From NCBI GenBank assembly GCA_003161635.1, contig PMOA01000060.1, forward strand, positions 1-60,773: a stretch of 60,773 nucleotides of DNA, read 5' to 3'. Origin of the DNA: Limisphaerales bacterium. GTDB taxonomy: Bacteria > Verrucomicrobiota > Verrucomicrobiia > Limisphaerales > UBA11358. A program made the translations under genes and the position numbers. A model generated the notes under the pieces. The model did not search any database. It worked only from the letters and a program-made list of their open reading frames with translations, and was not told the origin of the DNA. Below, in pieces: positions 1 through 9,324 of this stretch (its first letter is position 1; every line of letters begins with the position of its first letter).

Positions 1-34
1 GCCGGCGGGGCGCGCTCCGCGCGCACCCGCCGGC
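1..34. repeat. GC-rich hairpin
   Basis: gccggcggg(1-9)/cccgccggc(26-34) plus gcgcgc(10-15)/gcgcgc(19-24), 3-nt loop, one bulged A. Confidence 0.7.
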
Positions 35-74
35 AAACCCAACCACGGAGTCGCCATGCGTGACCACGTTACGA

Positions 75-413
75 CTACTCCAGGGGCAACACGGAACCCG
101 CCCGAATGATGACCCCGTTCTTGGCGTCAAAACCGTTCGGCTCCATCAGATCGAACTCCACCACCAATTTTTGCCCCTCCTTGAACGTGCAGGAGCATTC
201 CTTGGCAGCCTGTTCGACGGTCTGGACGCTGCGAGGGCACCAGGTTTGGACCGTGGGTGCCTTCCCATCGGCACACTGAACTTCGTAGAGGTTCACAATG
301 CCGACGACCTTTTTTGCTTTGTTTTGAACTTCCTTGTGGCGATGAGCCACAAACTTGGCGAGGACCACGCGGCGGCCCGCCAAGAACTGTTCGACTGCGA
401 TTTGCTGTTTCAT
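75..413 (-). CDS. Small hypothetical mobile-element protein, possibly OB-fold ssDNA-binding
   Basis: 112 aa, beta-rich, basic; ATG overlaps the stop of the upstream ORF (ATGA). Confidence 0.6.
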   Translation of the reverse strand: MKQQIAVEQFLAGRRVVLAKFVAHRHKEVQNKAKKVVGIVNLYEVQCADGKAPTVQTWCPRSVQTVEQAAKECSCTFKEGQKLVVEFDLMEPNGFDAKNGVIIRAGSVLPLE

Positions 414-580
414 ATTCCCTTTTGGCTTACCACGCGACAGACGACGCCACAGTCTTCGCCGTTGGTGATTACAACGATTAGTCCATCATTGACCCCATCC
501 ACGCTGAACAGGCGGGTGAAGTGGCCGGCGAACATCTGGTGACGTTCAAGCGACCTGTTTGTGTGAAGAATTACGTTCAC
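410..580 (-). CDS. 56-aa hypothetical protein (below ORF-track cutoff)
   Basis: GTG at 580, MNVILHTNRSLERHQMFAGHF...VVSQKGI*, TGA overlaps the ATG of 75..413, suggesting translational coupling. Confidence 0.5.
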   Translation of the reverse strand: MNVILHTNRSLERHQMFAGHFTRLFSVDGVNDGLIVVITNGEDCGVVCRVVSQKGI

Positions 581-646
581 GCGCTAACTTTAGCGCGTGT
601 AGAAAATCTGTCAGGAGATTGGGACAGCCTAGGAGGGGGTGCTGTC

Positions 647-1555
647 CTAAACCGGTGGCTCTTGCTCTGGATTTGGCCTTGGCCCCGGTGGCCGTTTCGT
701 TGTCAATCCAAGACGTTCACGCCGTTTCTTCAACGTGCCGGGCATCACACGTTGCCCCGTCATCACCAGAATTGCGTCCGAAAGTTCCTCGGCAGTGAGG
801 AGATTGTATTTTCTGCGAAGCCAGTTCAGCACCAGTTCGTGATTGATTGGATCTATTTCGCGTTTAGGTTCCTGCCAAACACGGGCGAACTCGCACATCC
901 ACTCCGTTCCAATGGGATTGCTGCGCTGCCATTCCTTCACCAAATCCTCAGTCCAATAATGAGCCATTTCGGCAAAATACGCTTCAACTGCTTCATGTTC
1001 AATTTTCTCACGCTCTCGCGGTTCTTCAGTCGTGTATGCTTTTTCCATCAGCGTAACGGTCTTCGGCTGCAGTCCGGCCAGCACCTTTAGCCTAGCCTGA
1101 TACAGGTCTTGCTCCTCGATTGATGATTTCCTGTCAGGACGACTGTAAGTAATCGGAATGCCATCGGGACGACTTTCAATGTAAGCCAGATCATCCTTGG
1201 ACGCCTCAAACATTGAGGCCAACTTTCGTAGTTCCGCCTTACTCATATTGACGAAGTTGACCATTTCATCGAACTTTTTCCGCGCATCTGCTTCCGTTGC
1301 GTTCGGTTCAAGATAAAAGATTTCGTCAGGTTCTTCCCGCCCGTCTTCGTAACGTTGCCAGTGAACAACCACCCAAATCTCCTTATTCCCCATGATGGCG
1401 TTATACATTGGATACATGGCTTCTCCCGGCTGAAAACCTACCTGGTTCGCTTTGAATCTGCCCAAGCCAACAATATCCCGATACCACACTGGCACTAGCT
1501 CAATGCGATCCTGAAACTCAACAAGCCAGACGCCTGTGTATGGAGGAATAATCAT
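647..1555 (-). CDS. Hypothetical island protein, basic C-terminus possibly DNA-binding
   Basis: 302-aa ORF with natural composition; ends LLTAEELSDAI...GTLKKRRERLGL. Confidence 0.7.
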   Translation of the reverse strand: MIIPPYTGVWLVEFQDRIELVPVWYRDIVGLGRFKANQVGFQPGEAMYPMYNAIMGNKEIWVVVHWQRYEDGREEPDEIFYLEPNATEADARKKFDEMVNFVNMSKAELRKLASMFEASKDDLAYIESRPDGIPITYSRPDRKSSIEEQDLYQARLKVLAGLQPKTVTLMEKAYTTEEPREREKIEHEAVEAYFAEMAHYWTEDLVKEWQRSNPIGTEWMCEFARVWQEPKREIDPINHELVLNWLRRKYNLLTAEELSDAILVMTGQRVMPGTLKKRRERLGLTTKRPPGPRPNPEQEPPV

Positions 1556-2028
1556 TTTCTTTTCGGCGATGGTATCCGCCCCGTTCCTGAATTTATAAAC
1601 ACCATCGGTTCAAAATTGATTTGCCACATTTTCCCCTCTGGCACAAAGACTTTCGCGCTGTCCGCTTTGCTCCCATCACAAAAGACTTTGCGCCAGCCCG
1701 ATATTGGCGCGACCAAAGCAGCGTAACCGTTCTCCGAACCGCCTCCGGCTAATTCTCCGCCCGGTAACACCGCTTCCGTCGCGATACGCCTTCGGTTTCT
1801 GATTGGTAGCGGGGACCGGAACGATTCGTCGTCCTTTTGCATTTCCCTGTTAAGGTGACGCTGGTAAATTTTCGGCACGCACAACCAGTCCTTCAACGGC
1901 TAATAATTCCTCGACACGGTTCAGAAATGGGCGTATTCAGCGAACACTGAACACGCTCCTTAAATAGGAATGGGGTTTCGAATTCAAATTTGATTGCCAA
2001 AAGACGAATTGATTCCAAAATTGACCTT

Positions 2029-2295
2029 GTGAAATTTGATTCCCAAAAAATCATTCAATACTTAAATACTAAATGGGCAGTCAAGCCATGCCCAATGTGC
2101 GGTATTATCAAGTGGAACGTTTCCGATAAGCTTTTCGAACTTCGAGAATATCATGGTGGAGATCTTGTGATCGGCGGACAAGCGTCAATTATACCGTTGA
2201 TACCAATTATTTGTAGCAATTGTGGCAACACGATTTTCATAAATGCAATTGTTGCCGGTGTTGAAATTCCTGGTATTCCCCCTCCTGCAAAATGA
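2029..2295 (+). CDS. Small zinc-ribbon protein (CPMC...CSNC)
   Basis: Two CxxC pairs; GTG 2029 (alternative TTG 1990); TGA overlaps next ATG. Confidence 0.8.
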   Translation: MKFDSQKIIQYLNTKWAVKPCPMCGIIKWNVSDKLFELREYHGGDLVIGGQASIIPLIPIICSNCGNTIFINAIVAGVEIPGIPPPAK

Positions 2296-3230
2296 GCTTC
2301 GAGGTAACACAAAATTTTGAATTGGTTTCCCACGAAAAAGGAAAGGCCTATCCAATTTCAGTCAAAGAATGGGAATATCTAAAAGAGCAGATTGGGCAAA
2401 TAGAAGAGCGAGGAAACTTTTGGCAAACGATTGGTTCAATTTTATTGGGGGCAGCCGGCACTGCTGTTCTGAACAGTTTTACAGCGACGTTCCCTACGCC
2501 TCCAGAAGGAAGCCAGTCCATTCCCAAAATCCTGAATTGGGCTTTTTTTCTGATTACTGGCCTTTCTGGATTACTGGCCTTTTTCTTTGGACGCAGTCAA
2601 AAAAAACTCCAAAAGCAATTTGCTCAGAATGTTGTCAGACAGATGGAACTCATCGAGGGGCGTTTCCAAAAAGAAAATTCAATTCAAACAGTTAATCAGA
2701 GGTCTGTTCGGTTTGTTGCTGCCATAACACTAAAACATTTTGCGACAGGAAAGTTCCTTGCGTCATGCCCCAAAAATCACAACCACAAAGGTTCGTCAAA
2801 TCAGCAAATGGTTTATGCTGCAAGTATTTCTGATTCGTATTCTGTGTGGATGCTTAAAGGCCCTCATGGCAAACCCGAAGATTACAACCGCGATAAACCT
2901 GTCAACAATAGCGACATAATTCGCCTCGAACATTTGCTAACAAGAAGGAATCTTCACAGCCACGGTGATCGTCTTTCCCCCATTTCACCACAGCAGGAAA
3001 TCACAGCTTGGGGATCGAATGGTGTGTGCGACGAAAACGATAATTGGCGTGTGGAGATAGAGGGTGGAGGGCAATTGCTCACGGGAAAACGACTGAGACT
3101 AATACATTGCAACACAAATATTGCATTGCACTCGCACATCGCATCTCAACCAGAATTTCTAGATGGCAATCAGGAGGTAACCGGATTTGGCGACAGGGAT
3201 AATAATGCTTTTTGGATTGTCGAATCCTAA
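2292..3230 (+). CDS. 2TM membrane protein with C-terminal MIR (SDF2-like) beta-trefoil domain
   Basis: Two hydrophobic helices (~aa43-63, ~80-100); three repeats ITLKHFATGKFLAS / IRLEHLLTRRNLHSH / LRLIHCNTNIALHSH, each followed by QQMV/QQEIT/NQEVT and a Trp, the MIR repeat pattern. Confidence 0.85.
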   Translation: MSFEVTQNFELVSHEKGKAYPISVKEWEYLKEQIGQIEERGNFWQTIGSILLGAAGTAVLNSFTATFPTPPEGSQSIPKILNWAFFLITGLSGLLAFFFGRSQKKLQKQFAQNVVRQMELIEGRFQKENSIQTVNQRSVRFVAAITLKHFATGKFLASCPKNHNHKGSSNQQMVYAASISDSYSVWMLKGPHGKPEDYNRDKPVNNSDIIRLEHLLTRRNLHSHGDRLSPISPQQEITAWGSNGVCDENDNWRVEIEGGGQLLTGKRLRLIHCNTNIALHSHIASQPEFLDGNQEVTGFGDRDNNAFWIVES

Positions 3231-3251
3231 CGGAAGGCTCATTGGCAGTCG

Positions 3252-3274
3252 CGGACACCAAAACGGACACCAAA
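3252..3274 (+). repeat. Tandem direct repeat CGGACACCAAA (12-nt period), probable integrase arm sites
   Basis: Copies at 3252-3262 and 3264-3274, about 100 bp before the tRNA fragment. Confidence 0.6.
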
Positions 3275-3368
3275 GGAGTTAAAACCGGTATAGTCGGGTT
3301 ATGACGAATTATGTTGAATAGTGAATGAAATCGGGTATATTTGGAGTGCAACAGCGGGGTAAATTGAC

Positions 3369-3389
3369 CGATTCCGACCCTCGCCTCCA
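3369..3389 (+). mobile_element. att site: duplicated 3' fragment of a tRNA, probably tRNA-Cys
   Basis: CGATTCCGACCCTCGCCTCCA = partial T-loop, T-stem, acceptor strand, U discriminator, CCA; no 5' half upstream. Confidence 0.75.
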
Positions 3390-3470
3390 TCAACGACTTA
3401 CGACGAAAATGGGTGACAAAAACCCCCATTTTTGCGAGGGTTGAAAACCGACCTCCGCCTCCCTTTCAAA

Positions 3471-3499
3471 TTCATGTTGGTCGCGGCGATGAACCCGAC
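3471..3499 (+). mobile_element. Possible att scar derived from comM/yifB
   Basis: Encodes FMLVAAMNP, a conserved ComM/YifB AAA+ motif, isolated from any comM ORF. Confidence 0.5.
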
Positions 3500-3606
3500 C
3501 GACTTTCTTTATTGGTGTCCCCGATTGATCCGGGAAAGCCAATACTTTTCTGCGCCATTTGCTCTGGATTTTCGCATTGAAGAGCAGAGAGTAATGCCGT
3601 CTGCAC

Positions 3607-4044
3607 ATGACAAATCCTCCTGATCGCGAAGTGGCCGTCTTTGGCGCTGCCCGGCGGCTGCCGGCCGGGGAGCGAGCAGCCTATCTCAATGAAGCCTGCG
3701 TCGGTGACGCGGCCTTGCGCCAGCGCGTCGAAGAACTGCTTAAGGCCAGTGAACAAGCCGGCGCGTTCCTCGAAAGCCCGGCAGCGGTGCCGCTTGGACC
3801 GGGCGGCACCATCCATCTTGAGTTGAGTCCCACCGAAAAACCCGGTGACCGCATCGGCCGCTATAAATTGCTCCAGCAAATCGGCGAAGGCGGCTGTGGC
3901 GTGGTCTATATGGCCGAGCAGACGGAACCAGTCCACCGTCGCGTCGCGCTCAAGGTCATCAAGCTCGGCATGGACACCAAAAGCGTCATCTCTATCGATA
4001 GTTTGACTTCTTTGTCACAGACGCGGGAGGCCAACTGTCTATAG
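3607..4044 (+). pseudogene. Truncated Hanks-type Ser/Thr kinase (PVC ECF-associated type)
   Basis: ERAAYL..AC.GD..LR..VE.LL N-terminus, IGEGGCGVVY, VALKVIK; similarity ends at ~3990, no catalytic loop. Confidence 0.85.
4013..4039 (+). promoter_or_regulatory. Putative ECF41-type promoter
   Basis: TGTCACA-N16-TGTC, one mismatch to the ECF41 consensus TGTCACA-N16-CGTC, 40 nt before the sigma ATG. Confidence 0.55.
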
Positions 4045-4078
4045 TGCAGAACCAAATAATATAAGGAATATAAGAACT

Positions 4079-4996
4079 ATGCAAAGCCAGGCGGAAATTT
4101 TTACTGAGTTACGGCCCGTCTTGATGACGCTCGCCCTGCGCATATTGGGCAGCGAAGTGGAGGCCGAGGATATGGTTCAGGAAACTTATCTGCGGTGGGA
4201 GCGAGCCGCCGCCACCGAAGTGCGCTCGCCAAAGGCATTTCTGACGACCATTGTCACCCGCCTCTGCCTTAACCATCTGAAGCTGGCCCGAGTGCGTCTG
4301 GAGCATGCGGACGCACCTTTGCTGCTGGACCGCTTGCCCTCCGACGCGCGCAGTCCGGCGGAGCAGGCCGGGTTCGCCGATGCGCTCACCGAGGCGTTTA
4401 TGTCCGCGCTGGGCAATCTCTCGGCGACCGAACGAGCGGTGTATCTCCTGCGCGAGGCCTTCGCGCTCGATTACGGCGATATTGCTTCGGTGGTGGACCG
4501 CAGCGAAGAGAACTGCCGCCAGATTTTAAAACGTGCCCGGGAGCGGATTGTGTCCAGGGAATCCACCGCCCGACCAGGCCGAGAGCAAACCCAGCGCGTT
4601 GTTTCGGAATTCCTCAACGCGTCTGAAACCGGTGAACTCGAGCCGCTTTTGAGGTTGCTGTCGGATGAAGCCGCGCTGGCCCGGGATCCGGGTGACCTGA
4701 CCAAGCCTGCGCCGCCCTTGATTCATGATCGCGAAATCATGTTCCAAACTCTCGGGAATGCCCTCGCGCAGATGCGCAACGCCAGCGACCGTTTTGTCCT
4801 TTTTCCCATCGGCCAGGACTACGCCTATGTGGCCCGCCGCGGCACAACCGCCAGGGGAGCAATTTTGTTGCGGGTCATTGATCAGAAGGTGGCGGTCGTG
4901 CGGCTGGTGAGTTGCCCGGTGCTGCTGCACCAGCTCCAGATTCTGATGGCTCTGAGCCTCGGTGGAGATGCTGGAAGCGATCCTCACAGCAATTGA
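4079..4996 (+). CDS. ECF sigma factor, SigJ/ECF41-like, with SnoaL-like C-terminal extension
   Basis: AEDMVQETYLRW, ERAVYLLREAF, EENCRQILKRAR, F..A...G.L..LL.LL. Confidence 0.85.
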   Translation: MQSQAEIFTELRPVLMTLALRILGSEVEAEDMVQETYLRWERAAATEVRSPKAFLTTIVTRLCLNHLKLARVRLEHADAPLLLDRLPSDARSPAEQAGFADALTEAFMSALGNLSATERAVYLLREAFALDYGDIASVVDRSEENCRQILKRARERIVSRESTARPGREQTQRVVSEFLNASETGELEPLLRLLSDEAALARDPGDLTKPAPPLIHDREIMFQTLGNALAQMRNASDRFVLFPIGQDYAYVARRGTTARGAILLRVIDQKVAVVRLVSCPVLLHQLQILMALSLGGDAGSDPHSN

Positions 4997-5156
4997 ACAA
5001 TGAAGGGAGAACGCCGCACGGTTCGCAAAGTTTTGGGGACTCCGACAACCCCTGTTTTGCCAGACACAGAACATGGAACCCCGTGAATTAATGGTTCTAT
5101 CCCCGAACGAGGATTCGTTCCAACTGTAAAAGTCGGAAACAACAATAGGCAAACAT

Positions 5157-6527
5157 ATGAAAACCATTAACTACAGAATCGGTGGTATGAGAAAAAGACT
5201 TTTTAGCATCGCCGCCGCGACGTCGAGTCTAGCTCTTTTGTGGCTGGTTAGCGCCTATGTCATCCGAGCAGCTCCCGGACCGCAGGCCGACCTGGAATCA
5301 CAGACCATTTCGGTGGAGCTGAACGCTTTATTGAAAGTAAACGAGGGCCGGAACATCTTCCGGTATGACACGTTCGGGGATCAGGCATTCTGGGGTGACG
5401 CCCTCAAGCTGCACCAGGCGATTGAGGGAGCCAATCTGGGCGGGGTCGGCCCCGGTGTAAGCCCCAGCACCGCTTTGGCCGTTGGATTGAAAGTGGACGT
5501 GGATACTTTGCCCCAGTCTCTGAAAAGGAAATTGGCCGCCGGGCAGGTGGATTTGAACGACCCGGCCAATACATTGGCGCTGCTGAAGCTCAATGCGGTT
5601 GTCGGCGTGACGGGTTTCTTTGACCGGCAGAATCGCCTGACTTCTCTCGGAATTCAATGTGCCTTGTGTCACTCGACTGTGGACAACTCGTTTGCGCCCG
5701 GTATTGGACACCGCCTTGACGGCTGGCCCAACCGCGATTTGAACGTCGGAGCCATTATCAACCTCGCCCCAGATCTCTCTCCGTTCGCCAATGCCCTGCA
5801 AGTGGATGAACCCACTGTGCGCACCGTCCTGCAAAGCTGGGGCCCCGGCAAATTCGATGCGGAGCTGCTGATGGACGGGCAGGCCTTTCGTCCGGACGGA
5901 AAATCCGCCGCCACACTGCTGCCTGCGGCCTTTGGCCTGGGCGGAGTCAATCTCCACACCTACACCGGCTGGGGTTCGGTCCCATATTGGAACGCCTTTG
6001 TGGCCAACCTGGAAATGCAAGGTTCAGGCCGGTTTTTCGACCCGCGCCTCAACGATGCCAATACCTTCCCGGTGGCCGCCCGCCTAGGCTTCGCGAATAT
6101 CAAGGCCGACAATGACCTGATCACCAGCAAGCTGGCAGCGCTGCAATTTTATCAACTGGCCCTCCCGGTTCCCAAGCCGCCGCGCGGCAGCTTTAACGCC
6201 GCCGCCGCCGCCCGCGGCAAGTCTCTATTCGAGGGCAAGGCCAACTGCGCCACCTGTCATGTGCCGCCACTTTACACAGAACCGGGTTGGAACATGCACA
6301 CGCCCTCGGAAATCGGGATTGACGATTTCCAGGCCAATCGCTCGCCCGACAAGCGCTACCGCACCACGCCACTGGGCGGACTCTTCGCCCGGGCCAAAGG
6401 CGGCTTCTACCATGACGGACGGTTTCCGACGCTGCTGGACGTAGTGAACAGCTACAACACGCGTTTCAACCTGGAGCTTACGCCACAAGAGAGTCAGAAC
6501 TTGGTGGAATACTTGAAGTCGCTCTGA
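5157..6527 (+). CDS. Exported di-heme cytochrome c protein (peroxidase-like superfamily)
   Basis: N-terminal signal/TM, CALCH and CATCH motifs, YRTTPL..L, FYHDGRF, LVEYLKSL. Confidence 0.85.
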   Translation: MKTINYRIGGMRKRLFSIAAATSSLALLWLVSAYVIRAAPGPQADLESQTISVELNALLKVNEGRNIFRYDTFGDQAFWGDALKLHQAIEGANLGGVGPGVSPSTALAVGLKVDVDTLPQSLKRKLAAGQVDLNDPANTLALLKLNAVVGVTGFFDRQNRLTSLGIQCALCHSTVDNSFAPGIGHRLDGWPNRDLNVGAIINLAPDLSPFANALQVDEPTVRTVLQSWGPGKFDAELLMDGQAFRPDGKSAATLLPAAFGLGGVNLHTYTGWGSVPYWNAFVANLEMQGSGRFFDPRLNDANTFPVAARLGFANIKADNDLITSKLAALQFYQLALPVPKPPRGSFNAAAAARGKSLFEGKANCATCHVPPLYTEPGWNMHTPSEIGIDDFQANRSPDKRYRTTPLGGLFARAKGGFYHDGRFPTLLDVVNSYNTRFNLELTPQESQNLVEYLKSL

Positions 6528-6528
6528 T

Positions 6529-6841
6529 CGCTCAGGGGCACTCCCTCATTGCCAGTTTGAAAGGCGAGGACGTGGACTGGACGAATGGCACCGTGAGTTT
6601 CTTCCGCAAAAAAACCGGCGTGCCCGTCATTGTCCACTTGGGCACGGAAGCATTAAACCTATTCAAAGACCTGCCCGCCGAAGGCGTGTTGTTTCCGTAC
6701 CCGGAACGATTCGCGCAGGAGGCTTTGGGCCACAACAGCAAGGCGGTGCATCGCGCCTACGCCAAACGCGCCCTGATGAAAATCCCGTCACTGGAAGATT
6801 ACGAACACCGGGCAGCCGCAAAGGTCCAACCGGCAGCATAA
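6529..6841 (+). pseudogene. Tyrosine integrase C-terminal remnant
   Basis: LKGEDVDW, RKKTG, YPERFAQEALGHNSKAVHRAY (box II H and Y); N-terminus and the HxxR segment missing. Confidence 0.8.
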
Positions 6842-7018
6842 ACGCTCGGATGGTTCAATTGGTAAAAGTAGCTGGGGTAAAAGCCGTGGCGTGTGAGAGA
6901 GCAAATGCCGCGCAATGTTGTCAGCGGCAAATCTTATCGAGGGATTTATATTCGCGGCTCGAAGTCGCGAATCGCGGTTGAGTTGAAGGCAACTTTTGAT
7001 ATCATCGTAAACACTTTT

Positions 7019-8017
7019 ATGAAAACCTTGCCAATCTTGGTGGCGATTCTGGCGGCGGCCTTAACTTCTTCCGCCGCACCAATCGCGATTGAAGACATTT
7101 CACCGCATTTGTCCACGAATGCCCAAATCATCTGGAAAGCACCGACCAGCACCCTGCCCAAAAATCTTTGGGTTTATAAAATTCTTCCCAACTCATTTAC
7201 CGCGCCGGTAATTTCCAATGCAGTGGTGCTGGCTTCATTTCAGAGCAAGGGATTTCCGCAGCCTTCGACCAACCAAATAATTCTTTGGGATCATAATCGC
7301 AAGGGCGATGATCCCCTCGCTGGTGCGTTTTGCATTCTGCCTGATGCTGAGGTGATACAGTTCACAATGCGGAATCATGCTGCTGGTTCCTCCGAGGCCA
7401 TTCCAAGTGATGAGATGATTGCGAAGCGGGCGTGGGACTGCGTTGCTCAACTGGGCATTGACCGTGCGCAATTATCGCAAGGAGGAATACAAAACAATGG
7501 GTGTGAATACGACGGCAAAGGCGGGCTGGCGACCAACGACTATGTCTGTGGGCGAGCGATTACCCTCGTTCGAAAAATTGACGGGGTGGATTTTCAAGCT
7601 GAAAGCGAAGGCTTCTCGATTGAGTTTGGCAGTCATGGCACAATCCGGTCTTTCGGTCTTCATTGGCCGAATCTTGAACGCTTTGATAACCGTCAAACTG
7701 TCAGTCCCAAACAAATCATTCGTTTCATCAGGGCCAACAAAACTCCTGTGTTTCCAAATGAAAACGAGGAAACCTTTTTTCAAAGGGTCAAATCCCTGTC
7801 CCAGGCCAAAACCTTCACCATCACCAAAATCACGCTATATTATGGCGAGGGCATCTTTGGTGAAACGCCAAAGGAAAACGAGACGCCGAAATATGTTACT
7901 CCTTATGCAGAGCTTCAGGCCGTTGCTGATCTCGGCAATTCCAATTTGACTGTCCGGCTAGCTGCTCCAATCATTTTGTCAGACGTGAACCAGATATTGG
8001 GGCACAAAGCCAAGTAA
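7019..8017 (+). CDS. Secreted hypothetical protein
   Basis: Signal peptide MKTLPILVAILAAALTSSA; 332 aa. Confidence 0.75.
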   Translation: MKTLPILVAILAAALTSSAAPIAIEDISPHLSTNAQIIWKAPTSTLPKNLWVYKILPNSFTAPVISNAVVLASFQSKGFPQPSTNQIILWDHNRKGDDPLAGAFCILPDAEVIQFTMRNHAAGSSEAIPSDEMIAKRAWDCVAQLGIDRAQLSQGGIQNNGCEYDGKGGLATNDYVCGRAITLVRKIDGVDFQAESEGFSIEFGSHGTIRSFGLHWPNLERFDNRQTVSPKQIIRFIRANKTPVFPNENEETFFQRVKSLSQAKTFTITKITLYYGEGIFGETPKENETPKYVTPYAELQAVADLGNSNLTVRLAAPIILSDVNQILGHKAK

Positions 8018-8065
8018 ATCTTAAAGGATTCAGTGTCCCCTAGCCTGTTATTACGCCGACGACAA

Positions 8066-8343
8066 CTAACCACCCACCGCCACTGACTTGCCGACTCGCG
8101 AAGAATCAATGTCCAGCAAACCATTCGGCGGAAGGTTTTTCTTAGCGGCATTTCTCTTTTGCCAATGCTGGTTCAACGCATTTGTGACTTTTGCCAGCCA
8201 AGTGCGGTCTTTGACCTGTTCCAGCAGTTCCGACGCCGCAAAAAACTTGACGCTGTTCGGCGGCGGATTGCCCAGCGGCTTGAGCAACCGCACCGCCACC
8301 AGAATCGGCACATCATGCGGCTGGCAATTCAGCACCCAAGCTA
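8066..8343 (-). pseudogene. 5'-truncated mobile-element protein (HTH/excisionase-like)
   Basis: AWVLNCQPHDVPILV..RLLKPLGNP..VKFF..KDRTWLAKVTNALNQHWQKRN; no natural start. Confidence 0.55.
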
Positions 8344-8501
8344 TCACCTTGCTGGCTGACCCTGATTGGCTGGACGATGCCACGAAAATCATCGGCCAAT
8401 ACTGGCGGCGAAAGAACGCCCAGCGCCATGGTTTGACCTTGGAAAAACTGGCGGACGCTGCCCCTGTGGACTCCGTTGCCCCATCCAAAAATTGTTTCTA
8501 A
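8343..8501 (+). pseudogene. 5'-truncated paralog of the adjacent remnant, opposite strand
   Basis: ADPDWLDDATKIIGQYWRRKNA aligns with KDRTWLAKVTNALNQHWQKRNA. Confidence 0.5.
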
Positions 8502-8706
8502 AAGGCGTTAGGACAATTTGAAACGCATCACCAGTGGAGCGAACGGCAAGAAACGCGCCGATTATCCGCGCAACTCTTTGCAGTTAAACTGCTAGTTGCG
8601 ATTTTGGCTTGCCAAAGATTTTTGTGATTTTTGTTGGACATCGTGCCTAAGTTTTGCTATTTTTGTTATCAGATATGTTTGGGCCAACAAGCAGAATTAT
8701 AAACCC

Positions 8707-9324
8707 ATGAAAAAAACCAATTTAAGTTCATATTCGTCGGCGCTGGTTTTGGCGGCCGGTCTTTTCGCGGCAACTTTCCCGGCGGCAGGTCAATCTATAC
8801 TCATCGACATAAATCAGAGCAACCCTTCCGCCGTGCAATTCATCGCCACCGGTGCCAGCCCCATCGTTAATGATTTCAGTGTGTATAATTTATTCGGTGT
8901 GGATCTCAACAGTTACTTCACCGCCTCCGTAGCCGGCGGAGGTGCCGCCACCGGCAGCCTCATTCCCGCCGGGACAACCGCTGCCTACACCCAATGGTTC
9001 TCCGACAATCTGCTCAATAGCCCCAACACTGTGGATTTGAATTTGTATACCAGTAGCAACCCGCAGCTTCAGAATTTCAGCATCTCTAGCGCAGCTTTTA
9101 CCGGCACGGCAAACATTAATTTGTCTAGCTTGCTCGCAGATCTTCCTACCACCGGCACGAGCGGTCCGATCTATTCCGGAGACAGCCGTTCGTCGGGCCA
9201 GTTGATTGGCACTTGGCAGGTCGTGCCCGAGCCGTCGGTGGAGGCGCAACTGGCGCTGGGCGCAGTGGTGTTTGCGGGACTGGCGCTCGTCCGTCGCGCA
9301 CGCCGCGTGGCGGCCCGCCGGTGA
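8707..9324 (+). CDS. PEP-CTERM sorting-domain surface protein
   Basis: Signal peptide, S/T/N-rich body, VPEPS + TM helix + RRARR tail. Confidence 0.9.
   Translation: MKKTNLSSYSSALVLAAGLFAATFPAAGQSILIDINQSNPSAVQFIATGASPIVNDFSVYNLFGVDLNSYFTASVAGGGAATGSLIPAGTTAAYTQWFSDNLLNSPNTVDLNLYTSSNPQLQNFSISSAAFTGTANINLSSLLADLPTTGTSGPIYSGDSRSSGQLIGTWQVVPEPSVEAQLALGAVVFAGLALVRRARRVAARR

Follow-up and report, generated by a model that had tools for sequence, protein, structure and literature searches.

The stretch of DNA analysed here (hereafter the window) comprises 60,773 bases from a Limisphaerales bacterium and begins at base 1 of contig C95. Near its left end lie two co-directional open reading frames (ORFs) on the + strand, gene 1 (1990/2029-2295) and gene 2 (2292-3230), which are the subject of this work. 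The former encodes a small protein with a four-Cys zinc ribbon (Zn-ribbon), and the latter encodes a 312-aa protein composed of two transmembrane (TM) helices, a long helix, and a MIR beta-trefoil. The stop of gene 1 and the start of gene 2 have in common the ATGA at 2292-2295, a 4-nt overlap, and the GC content was 0.40-0.45 over both genes and 0.43 over 1844-3250 versus 0.567 over the whole window. This confirmed the AT-rich, coupled gene pair described in the original prediction, which a model had made from the letters of the stretch. The same prediction regarded the pair as the last cargo of an integrated element, placed before a tRNA attachment (att) scar. Neither claim was confirmed: ARAGORN detected no tRNA gene in the 60,773 bases, Rfam gave nothing at E<=1 within 1-9000, and a pattern search found no T-arm-like motif near the pair, while the upstream minus-strand ORFs matched no family of Pfam (2025 copy), NCBIfam (June 2026), PADLOC-DB v2.0.0, or PHROGs, the libraries used throughout. 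Instead, the pair lies in a discrete low-GC insert (1844-3250, + strand). Between its flanks, at 1631-1843 and 3251-3389, are 1406 bases that hold just the pair and its upstream region, whereas a second copy of these flanks on contig C2 of the same genome is separated by 12 nt. Given the low GC and the nearly adjoining flanks on C2, the cassette is a discrete 1.4-kb insert that was recently acquired. No convincing terminal direct or inverted repeats were found at the 1844-3250 ends. A 1546-bp contig that covers 1735-3280, including the insert and both junctions, was present in DNA from two studies and showed 0 differences, and the insert stretch recurred in peat metagenome runs of several studies.

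Gene 1 was assigned from the ORF and the alignment of its homologues, which favoured the GTG at 2029 as its start and thus an 88-aa protein (2029-2295, + strand); a TTG at 1990, which would give a 101-aa protein, is a possible alternative start. The protein contains a CPMC and a CSNC motif, and all 24 aligned sequences have its four cysteines (C21, C24, C62, and C65), in agreement with the Zn-ribbon that had been predicted. The homologues formed at least 50 clusters of 82-115 aa, in none of which a Pfam domain was recognized, and gene 1 itself gave no family model above the cut-off in Pfam, NCBIfam, or PADLOC; a profile search for PDB relatives reached a best E value of 0.046, which is not meaningful. 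Residues 44-62 (2158-2214) form a hydrophobic Pro-rich stretch with a conserved IPVIPV-like motif before the second Cys pair (Kyte-Doolittle mean 1.63), and this stretch might contact the membrane or the hairpin of the partner protein.

Residues 1-133 of gene 2 (2292-2690, + strand) constitute a conserved two-TM (2TM) core, here called type A, as shown by profile search and AlphaFold2 (AF2) modelling. Hydrophobic helices occur at residues ~47-65 and ~80-100. The core was folded separately from the MIR domain, and its AF2 model (pLDDT 89.9) showed an extended N-terminus, followed by helices at 24-36 and 43-64 (TM1) and, after a short loop, by a single long helix at 77-132 whose first part is TM2. 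The two TM helices and three MIR motifs of the predicted layout were found, whereas what it called a "coiled linker" is a long helix running on from TM2. Lys and Arg together number 5 in the N-terminal tail, 1 in the loop, and 7 in the stretch that directly follows TM2. By the positive-inside rule, these counts predict an N-in/C-in hairpin, which would place the MIR domain in the cytoplasm. The predicted periplasmic loop is ~12-15 residues long and poorly conserved, while W27 and G53 of the core are invariant and M118 and E122 nearly so. Profile searching for PDB relatives of the core gave a best E value of 0.017, which is not meaningful, and Foldseek with the core model found no match at E<=0.001; the ESM Atlas returned only unnamed clusters, one of which is 60% viral.

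A profile search with the type A core, in which 1.84 billion representatives were scored, gave 1463 clusters (50% identity) at E<=1e-3 and 677 at E<=1e-10, and members were found in many phyla. These 1463 clusters, together with the at least 50 clusters of gene 1, are far beyond what chance matching would give. Among the best 150 type A representatives, 90 were of <=150 aa, 27 of 151-199 aa, and 33 of >=200 aa, so that most consist of little besides the core. C-terminal additions were scanned in 45 members of >=165 aa: DnaJ-like_C11_C was found in 12 of the 45, whereas MIR, 3keto-disac_hyd, Laminin_G_3, DUF6250, and MPTase-PolyVal occurred in one each. The DnaJ-like_C11_C addition (DUF3395), the commonest one, is ~70 aa long and is seen, for example, in L004, L008, L010, and L022. 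Since most members are short and the C-terminal additions varied, the conserved module is the Zn-ribbon protein plus a ~130-aa 2TM protein, and MIR is a rare add-on. The MIR fusion, which the original prediction took as the defining architecture, therefore does not define the family, and the finding is more general than was seen at first.

The linkage of the two genes was examined by scanning one genome per species with the Zn-ribbon alignment. This yielded 39 loci in Planctomycetota, Bacteroidota, Acidobacteriota, Pseudomonadota, Bacillota, Cyanobacteria, and other groups, and in 36 of them a co-directional ORF begins <=40 nt from the Zn-ribbon stop. BLAST clustering assigned 23 of these downstream ORFs (24 with that of the window), mostly of 125-150 aa, to type A, that is, to the homologues of gene-2 residues 1-130, and six to a second family, type B. 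Reverse searching from the 2TM core gave three new strong matches (L087, L089, and L090), and all three have the Zn-ribbon gene directly upstream; a metagenome scan with the narrowed core alignment A12 gave one locus. Thus, the two genes are obligately linked, as 36 of 39 loci in one direction and three of three in the other showed. No third conserved gene occurs in the 39 loci and the window.

The 2TM partner of the Zn-ribbon is exchangeable. Type B corresponds to the Pfam family CyanoTRADDas_TM (PF20712), with matches above the cut-off (E values of 3.7e-11, 2.4e-12, and 3.5e-14), and profile comparison showed no homology between it and type A (hhalign probability 1.5%). Nevertheless, identity to gene 1 was 47-59% for type-B-linked Zn-ribbons and 35-58% for type-A-linked ones. 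In the Zn-ribbon tree, which is of low resolution for so short a protein, type-B-linked members occurred in at least two places, and one type-A-linked member fell inside the main type B group. Other small 2TM proteins stand beside the Zn-ribbon in L030, L034, L035, and L036. The Zn-ribbon is therefore the constant part of the module, and its 2TM partner is swapped between unrelated families. Prediction of a complex between the Zn-ribbon protein and the 2TM core gave an ipSAE of 0.00 in two runs, made without controls, a result that weighs on neither side of the question of binding.

The pair is horizontally mobile and very patchy in its distribution. It was found in none of 40 relatives of the source genome, 24 of them of the same genus, and in 4 of 401 genomes from a different family (that of G041), one of these matches being doubtful. 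A tblastn search detected the Zn-ribbon on 15 plasmids of 2676-2680 bp, of which 13 came from Escherichia and two from Salmonella; all were typed as mobilizable. On one of them, a ColE1-like E. coli plasmid of 2678 bp (L080), the pair at 826-1499 makes up the entire cargo, the other genes being a rep fragment, mobA, and rop. It encodes proteins of 90 and 134 aa with a 4-nt overlap, both annotated as hypothetical, and the 2TM protein is of type A (hhalign probability 100%, E 5.6e-43). Near-identical copies were present in the two Salmonella records and in 14 of 5426 complete E. coli genomes, in the latter always on such a plasmid and never on the chromosome. Viral carriage was also evident, as IMG/VR contained 32 viral loci with the Zn-ribbon, whereas none of 50,697 GenBank phage records had it. 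When 28 viral loci were inspected by eye, the partner was of type B in 24, type A in two, and another 2TM protein in one, and the remaining locus ended too early; of four viral partners searched against Pfam, L049 and L055 passed the PF20712 cut-off, L075 was sub-threshold, and L073 gave none. At 21 viral loci, the three downstream genes were mostly terS, terL, and portal genes, and a flanking transcriptional regulator was common. The 117 viral neighbours scanned included 15 with terS of phrog_2606, 12-17 with terL families, and seven with portal families.

For the chromosomal loci, the two nearest large ORFs on each side were taken, giving 143 neighbouring proteins. They contained Eco57I (three), N6_Mtase (two), Methylase_S (two), BsuBI/PstI (one), and phage integrase (three) domains, as well as an IS66 transposase, an SPP1 portal protein, three HTH_3 proteins, and three SDH-type ClpP-like proteases. 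The restriction-modification and integrase neighbours are suggestive of a defence or mobile context, the figures being raw counts and not a measured enrichment. Thus, the linkage of homologues to the Zn-ribbon gene and to mobile DNA (plasmids and prophages) that the original prediction called for was verified. The defence neighbourhood was found in part, with some restriction-modification genes and integrases nearby but a modest enrichment of about a dozen among the 143.

In the gene-2 copy of the window, the core is followed by the MIR beta-trefoil with its three MIR motifs (residues 137-312; 2700-3227, + strand). Pfam PF02815 matched residues 177-298 with an E value of 1.2e-9 and 38.8 bits versus a cut-off of 25.6, and the closest PDB sequence was the SDF2-like protein 3MAL (E 6.6e-22). 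The AF2 model (pLDDT 95.6, pTM 0.91) has 12 strands, and Foldseek aligned it with 3MAL (TM-score 0.91), 1T9F (0.90), and the MIR domains of Pmt2/3/4 (0.86-0.89). By these three methods, the C-terminus of gene 2 is a MIR trefoil, as had been predicted. It was also called eukaryote-like, but the domain is not specifically so: it falls within a broad family of bacterial MIR domains whose members are joined to hydrolases, lectins, and other modules. Only three of the 27 gene-2 matches were full-length, namely P0001 (its own cluster), P0002 (58% identity), and P0003 (53%), so the 2TM-MIR fusion is rare, with three 90%-identity clusters including its own. The remaining matches share the MIR domain alone, joined to Spherulin4, Exo_endo_phos, alpha/beta-hydrolase, B_lectin, and other domains. 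The MIR homologues P0002-P0022 matched PF02815 with E values of 6.9e-21 to 5.2e-12. P0004-P0022 include bacterial MIR domains with three near-perfect LHSH motifs, some of them fused to papain-like-looking parts, and P0021 and P0022 have a hydrophobic N-terminal stretch that by eye has the look of a signal peptide. A close MIR relative also occurs in Naegleria fowleri (P0026, E 8.5e-22).

In an alignment of 25 MIR domains, most bacterial members have LHSH in all three MIR motifs, whereas the gene-2 MIR has LHSH in motifs 2 and 3 and LASC in motif 1, a loss also seen in P0002, P0003, and P0008. In Pmt2-MIR, which binds mannose and O-mannosyl peptides, the two ligand cavities are reported to be floored by the LH(S/T)H histidines (PMC7759382). 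In the MIR tree, gene 2, P0002, and P0003 grouped with P0008 (support 0.988). P0008 is a 382-aa metagenomic protein with an N-terminal MIR domain, no evident signal peptide by eye, and a C-terminal 2TM and helical part. This C-terminal 2TM part matched PADLOC RTasSLATT weakly (E 2e-4) and showed no relation to type A or B by hhalign. The gene-2 fusion and P0008 suggest that bacteria use a cytoplasmic MIR trefoil together with membrane modules. P0017 is a third, unrelated 2TM-MIR fusion, whose TM part likewise has no relation to types A and B by hhalign.

The insert lies between dispersed repeats. The left one, repeat A (1631-1843, strand undefined), ends at the ATG of a minus-strand ORF and has 81-88% identical copies on C23, C2, C116, and C35 and a 72% identical copy on C34. 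The right one, repeat B (3251-3389, strand undefined), is 92% identical to C2:60669-60806 and has short copies on C129 and C138. Neither had an Rfam match. In DNA runs, their summed contig depth was 10-30 times that of neighbouring unique sequence (maximum 322 versus 9.3, X7), and the repeats are therefore common in the community. One X9 DNA contig joins 1814 to 3251, but this joint is indistinguishable from that of the C2 paralogue and so does not demonstrate an allele with an empty site. Metatranscriptome contigs (X19 and X20) fell only on the repeated flanks, with zero cover over 2016-3247. The upstream non-coding part of the insert (1844-2028, + strand) contains a weak sigma-70-like site at 1994-2021 (TTGCCA-16-CAAAAT; 9 of 12 consensus matches in a consensus scan), which is only a candidate promoter because such sites in the region do not exceed the shuffled expectation. 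The surroundings of the insert include an extracytoplasmic function (ECF) sigma factor gene. At 3607-4044 lies a 145-aa N-terminal Ser/Thr kinase-like fragment (Pkinase E 0.02), and the DNA at 3368-3980 is 84% identical to C9:37778-38391, with parts recurring on C153, C96, and C50; the fragment appears to be a shortened copy from a family of paralogues. A 94-aa ORF at 6557-6841 is similar to the C-terminus of tyrosine integrases (phrog_1 E 2.7e-4) and is probably a remnant. On C2, the same repeats are followed by an ORF (L043 1934-2410) with the look, by eye only, of an integrase N-terminus.

What might such a pair do? The reading that we favour, tentatively and at somewhat below an even chance, is a membrane-effector conflict module resembling toxin-antitoxin (TA) or abortive-infection systems, with MIR as an added cytoplasmic sensor. 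The coupling of the genes, the constant Zn-ribbon with a swappable 2TM partner, the swappable C-termini, and the patchiness and mobile carriage are best fitted by a selfish or defensive cassette. The 2TM protein would be the effector, disturbing the membrane once released or triggered and oligomerizing via the TM hairpin and the long helix. The Zn-ribbon protein, a small and probably cytoplasmic partner, would serve as regulator or sensor, either restraining the effector or switching it on, and the payoff would be phage defence or stabilization of the carrier element. In the copy studied here, the C-terminal MIR trefoil, if cytoplasmic as predicted, most likely adds a ligand-binding, protein-binding, or localization input to the effector. 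The membrane-effector design put forward in the original prediction thus gains a comparative fit from the CyanoTRADDas_TM partners and from the weak RTasSLATT match of P0008, although a MIR sensor cannot explain the family in general.

Several observations weigh against a conflict module. No known-family match links either protein to defence or toxicity, and the Pfam SLATT models had no match to gene 2 at E<=1. The defence or mobile neighbours are few in number, about a dozen of 143. In prophages, the pair sits inside a rightward lytic block beside the terminase genes and not in a lysogeny module, a position that would also suit a phage-serving function in lytic growth. The Zn-ribbon is 50-60% identical among members with unrelated partners, which is hard to square with a specific antitoxin-toxin interface. 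Furthermore, as most members lack a C-terminal domain, MIR cannot be a general sensor, and the positive-inside rule is the sole basis for the predicted topology of gene 2.

A rival reading is a non-lethal role in exclusion or protection, whereby the pair blocks DNA entry or superinfection, or shields the envelope, in the manner of superinfection- and entry-exclusion proteins. The pair is carried by prophages and, as the sole cargo, by a tiny plasmid, the 2TM protein is small, is predicted to sit in the inner membrane, and would expose only a short loop on the outside, and no toxin or pore family matches it. Yet the loop that would face outward is the ~12-15-residue, poorly conserved part, while W27, G53, M118, and E122 are predicted to be cytoplasmic or in the membrane. 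Moreover, the alternative partner PF20712 is associated with TRADD-N, for which a suicide or immunity role has been predicted, and the sister MIR protein P0008 bears a weakly SLATT-like module. We consider exclusion unlikely, while ranking it next to the conflict module.

A function that serves the carrier and not the defence of the host, such as lysis timing, membrane remodelling with the packaging genes, or counter-defence, is suggested by the 21 viral loci, where the pair immediately precedes terS, terL, and portal genes in the same orientation, and by weak, sub-threshold holin matches. It is nonetheless a distinctly improbable account of the family: most genome loci lie outside recognizable prophages, the E. 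coli carrier plasmid has no phage genes, the window copy is an isolated insert, no endolysin-type gene was among the top neighbour families, and the Zn-ribbon is missing from the 50,697 GenBank phage records.

In a bolder extension of the conflict module, membrane-perforating effectors would have taken up the cytoplasmic MIR clade on more than one occasion, in gene 2 and in P0008, to sense a ligand, with the trefoil gating a 2TM pore. Binding of a phosphorylated sugar, an inositol-like or nucleotide-derived signal, or a phage product to the trefoil would open the pore, and the Zn-ribbon partner would set the threshold. We regard this as a long shot. If true, it would provide a prokaryotic counterpart of the MIR/beta-trefoil ligand region that gates inositol trisphosphate (IP3) and ryanodine receptors, and would reveal a new and very widespread two-gene immune cassette of a Zn-ribbon and an exchangeable 2TM effector.

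Least probable is an ordinary cellular pair, for example, a membrane-anchored extracellular MIR lectin or carbohydrate-binding module with a small zinc-binding chaperone or regulator: such a role would accord with the mannose and O-mannosyl peptide binding described for Pmt2 MIR (PMC7759382), with the many bacterial MIR domains fused to hydrolases or lectins, and with the signal-peptide look, by eye, of P0021 and P0022, but the positive-inside rule, with seven Lys/Arg directly after TM2, places the MIR domain in the cytoplasm, most family members have no MIR or other C-terminal domain, the distribution is extremely patchy with mobile carriers, and the gene-2 clade no longer has the His pair in MIR motif 1.

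If the cassette is a conflict module, it represents a large unnamed family of unusual build, with a constant Zn-ribbon and exchangeable 2TM partners and C-termini; if not, it is still an uncharacterized, highly mobile membrane pair beyond the current family libraries. Its natural occurrence on a 2.7-kb E. coli plasmid makes the cassette directly testable in a laboratory host. The novelty lies more in the Zn-ribbon/2TM cassette than in the MIR fusion, although cytoplasmic bacterial MIR domains together with membrane modules bear on the origin of MIR in eukaryotic channels and endoplasmic reticulum proteins.

Comparison with known families and systems brought up no described system of this kind, in line with the original prediction. 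No model above the cut-off was found in Pfam or NCBIfam for the Zn-ribbon and the type A core (the gene-2 MIR excepted), and PADLOC-DB v2.0.0 listed no family at E<=1 for gene 1, gene 2, or the two proteins encoded by the E. coli plasmid. Nor did the type B versions match it, apart from weak matches restricted to the TM regions of two relatives (LeoBC, E 9.6e-4 and 0.0091; CARF_2M, 0.027), and PHROGs yielded one weak partial match (phrog_4293, E 1.4e-4). In the literature outside supplementary tables, no paper was found that deals with the pair, with the two RefSeq accessions of the plasmid-borne proteins from E. coli, or with MIR-2TM fusions in bacteria, although supplementary candidate lists of recent defence-prediction papers may include the pair. 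MIR is not mentioned in PMC7016017. The gene-2 MIR has the same fold and belongs to the same family as the MIR domains of SDF2 and protein O-mannosyltransferases (PMT) (PF02815; 3MAL, 6ZQP, 6P28, and 9FD1). The PMT domains are luminal according to the abstracts, whereas that of gene 2 stands behind a 2TM hairpin, is predicted to be cytoplasmic, and is accompanied by no glycosyltransferase. In addition, its motif 1 has LASC in place of the LH(S/T)H of Pmt2, whose histidine pair lies at the bottom of site alpha.

Holin matches were sub-threshold (Phage_holin_5_1, E 0.003, in 1 of the 45 long members; Phage_holin_10, E 0.25), no holin family passed its cut-off, and the prophage neighbours are terminase and portal genes, with no endolysin-type neighbour among the top families at the viral loci.

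Type II TA systems offer a partial likeness. Many type II TA pairs are small co-directional genes that overlap by 4 nt, and examples with a zinc-finger antitoxin (MqsA/YgiT) or with a membrane toxin exist. The present pair shares with them the small, co-directional, overlapping genes with the smaller one first, as well as carriage on plasmids and prophages. It differs in having no helix-turn-helix, and the NCBIfam models of the YgiT-type finger (E 0.032 and 0.0046) and of the MqsA family (E 0.069) scored below their cut-offs.

In signalling-based defence, the 2TM-SAVED proteins of cyclic-oligonucleotide-based antiphage signalling systems (CBASS) and the SLATT effectors consist of a 2TM membrane effector fused to a sensor domain. 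Gene 2 is like them in its two-helix hairpin, its globular domain, predicted to be cytoplasmic, and its mobile carriage, whereas it is partnered by an 88-aa Zn-ribbon protein. Gene 2 matched no SLATT or SAVED Pfam family at E<=1, and SLATT-type matches in its relatives were weak (DUF4231, E 0.0078, in 1 of the 45 long members; SLATT_1, E 0.12, in one type B partner). Neither a nucleotide cyclase nor any other enzyme that produces a signal was conserved beside the pair in the 39 loci and the window, and the top neighbour families included no cyclase.

The remaining comparison concerns the alternative partner itself. Gene 2 had no match to PF20712 at E<=1. The name CyanoTRADDas_TM refers to an association with TRADD-N proteins, which are predicted cell-suicide or immunity proteins, and the family takes the same place behind the Zn-ribbon as the type A core does, in six genome loci and, by eye, in 24 of 28 viral loci.

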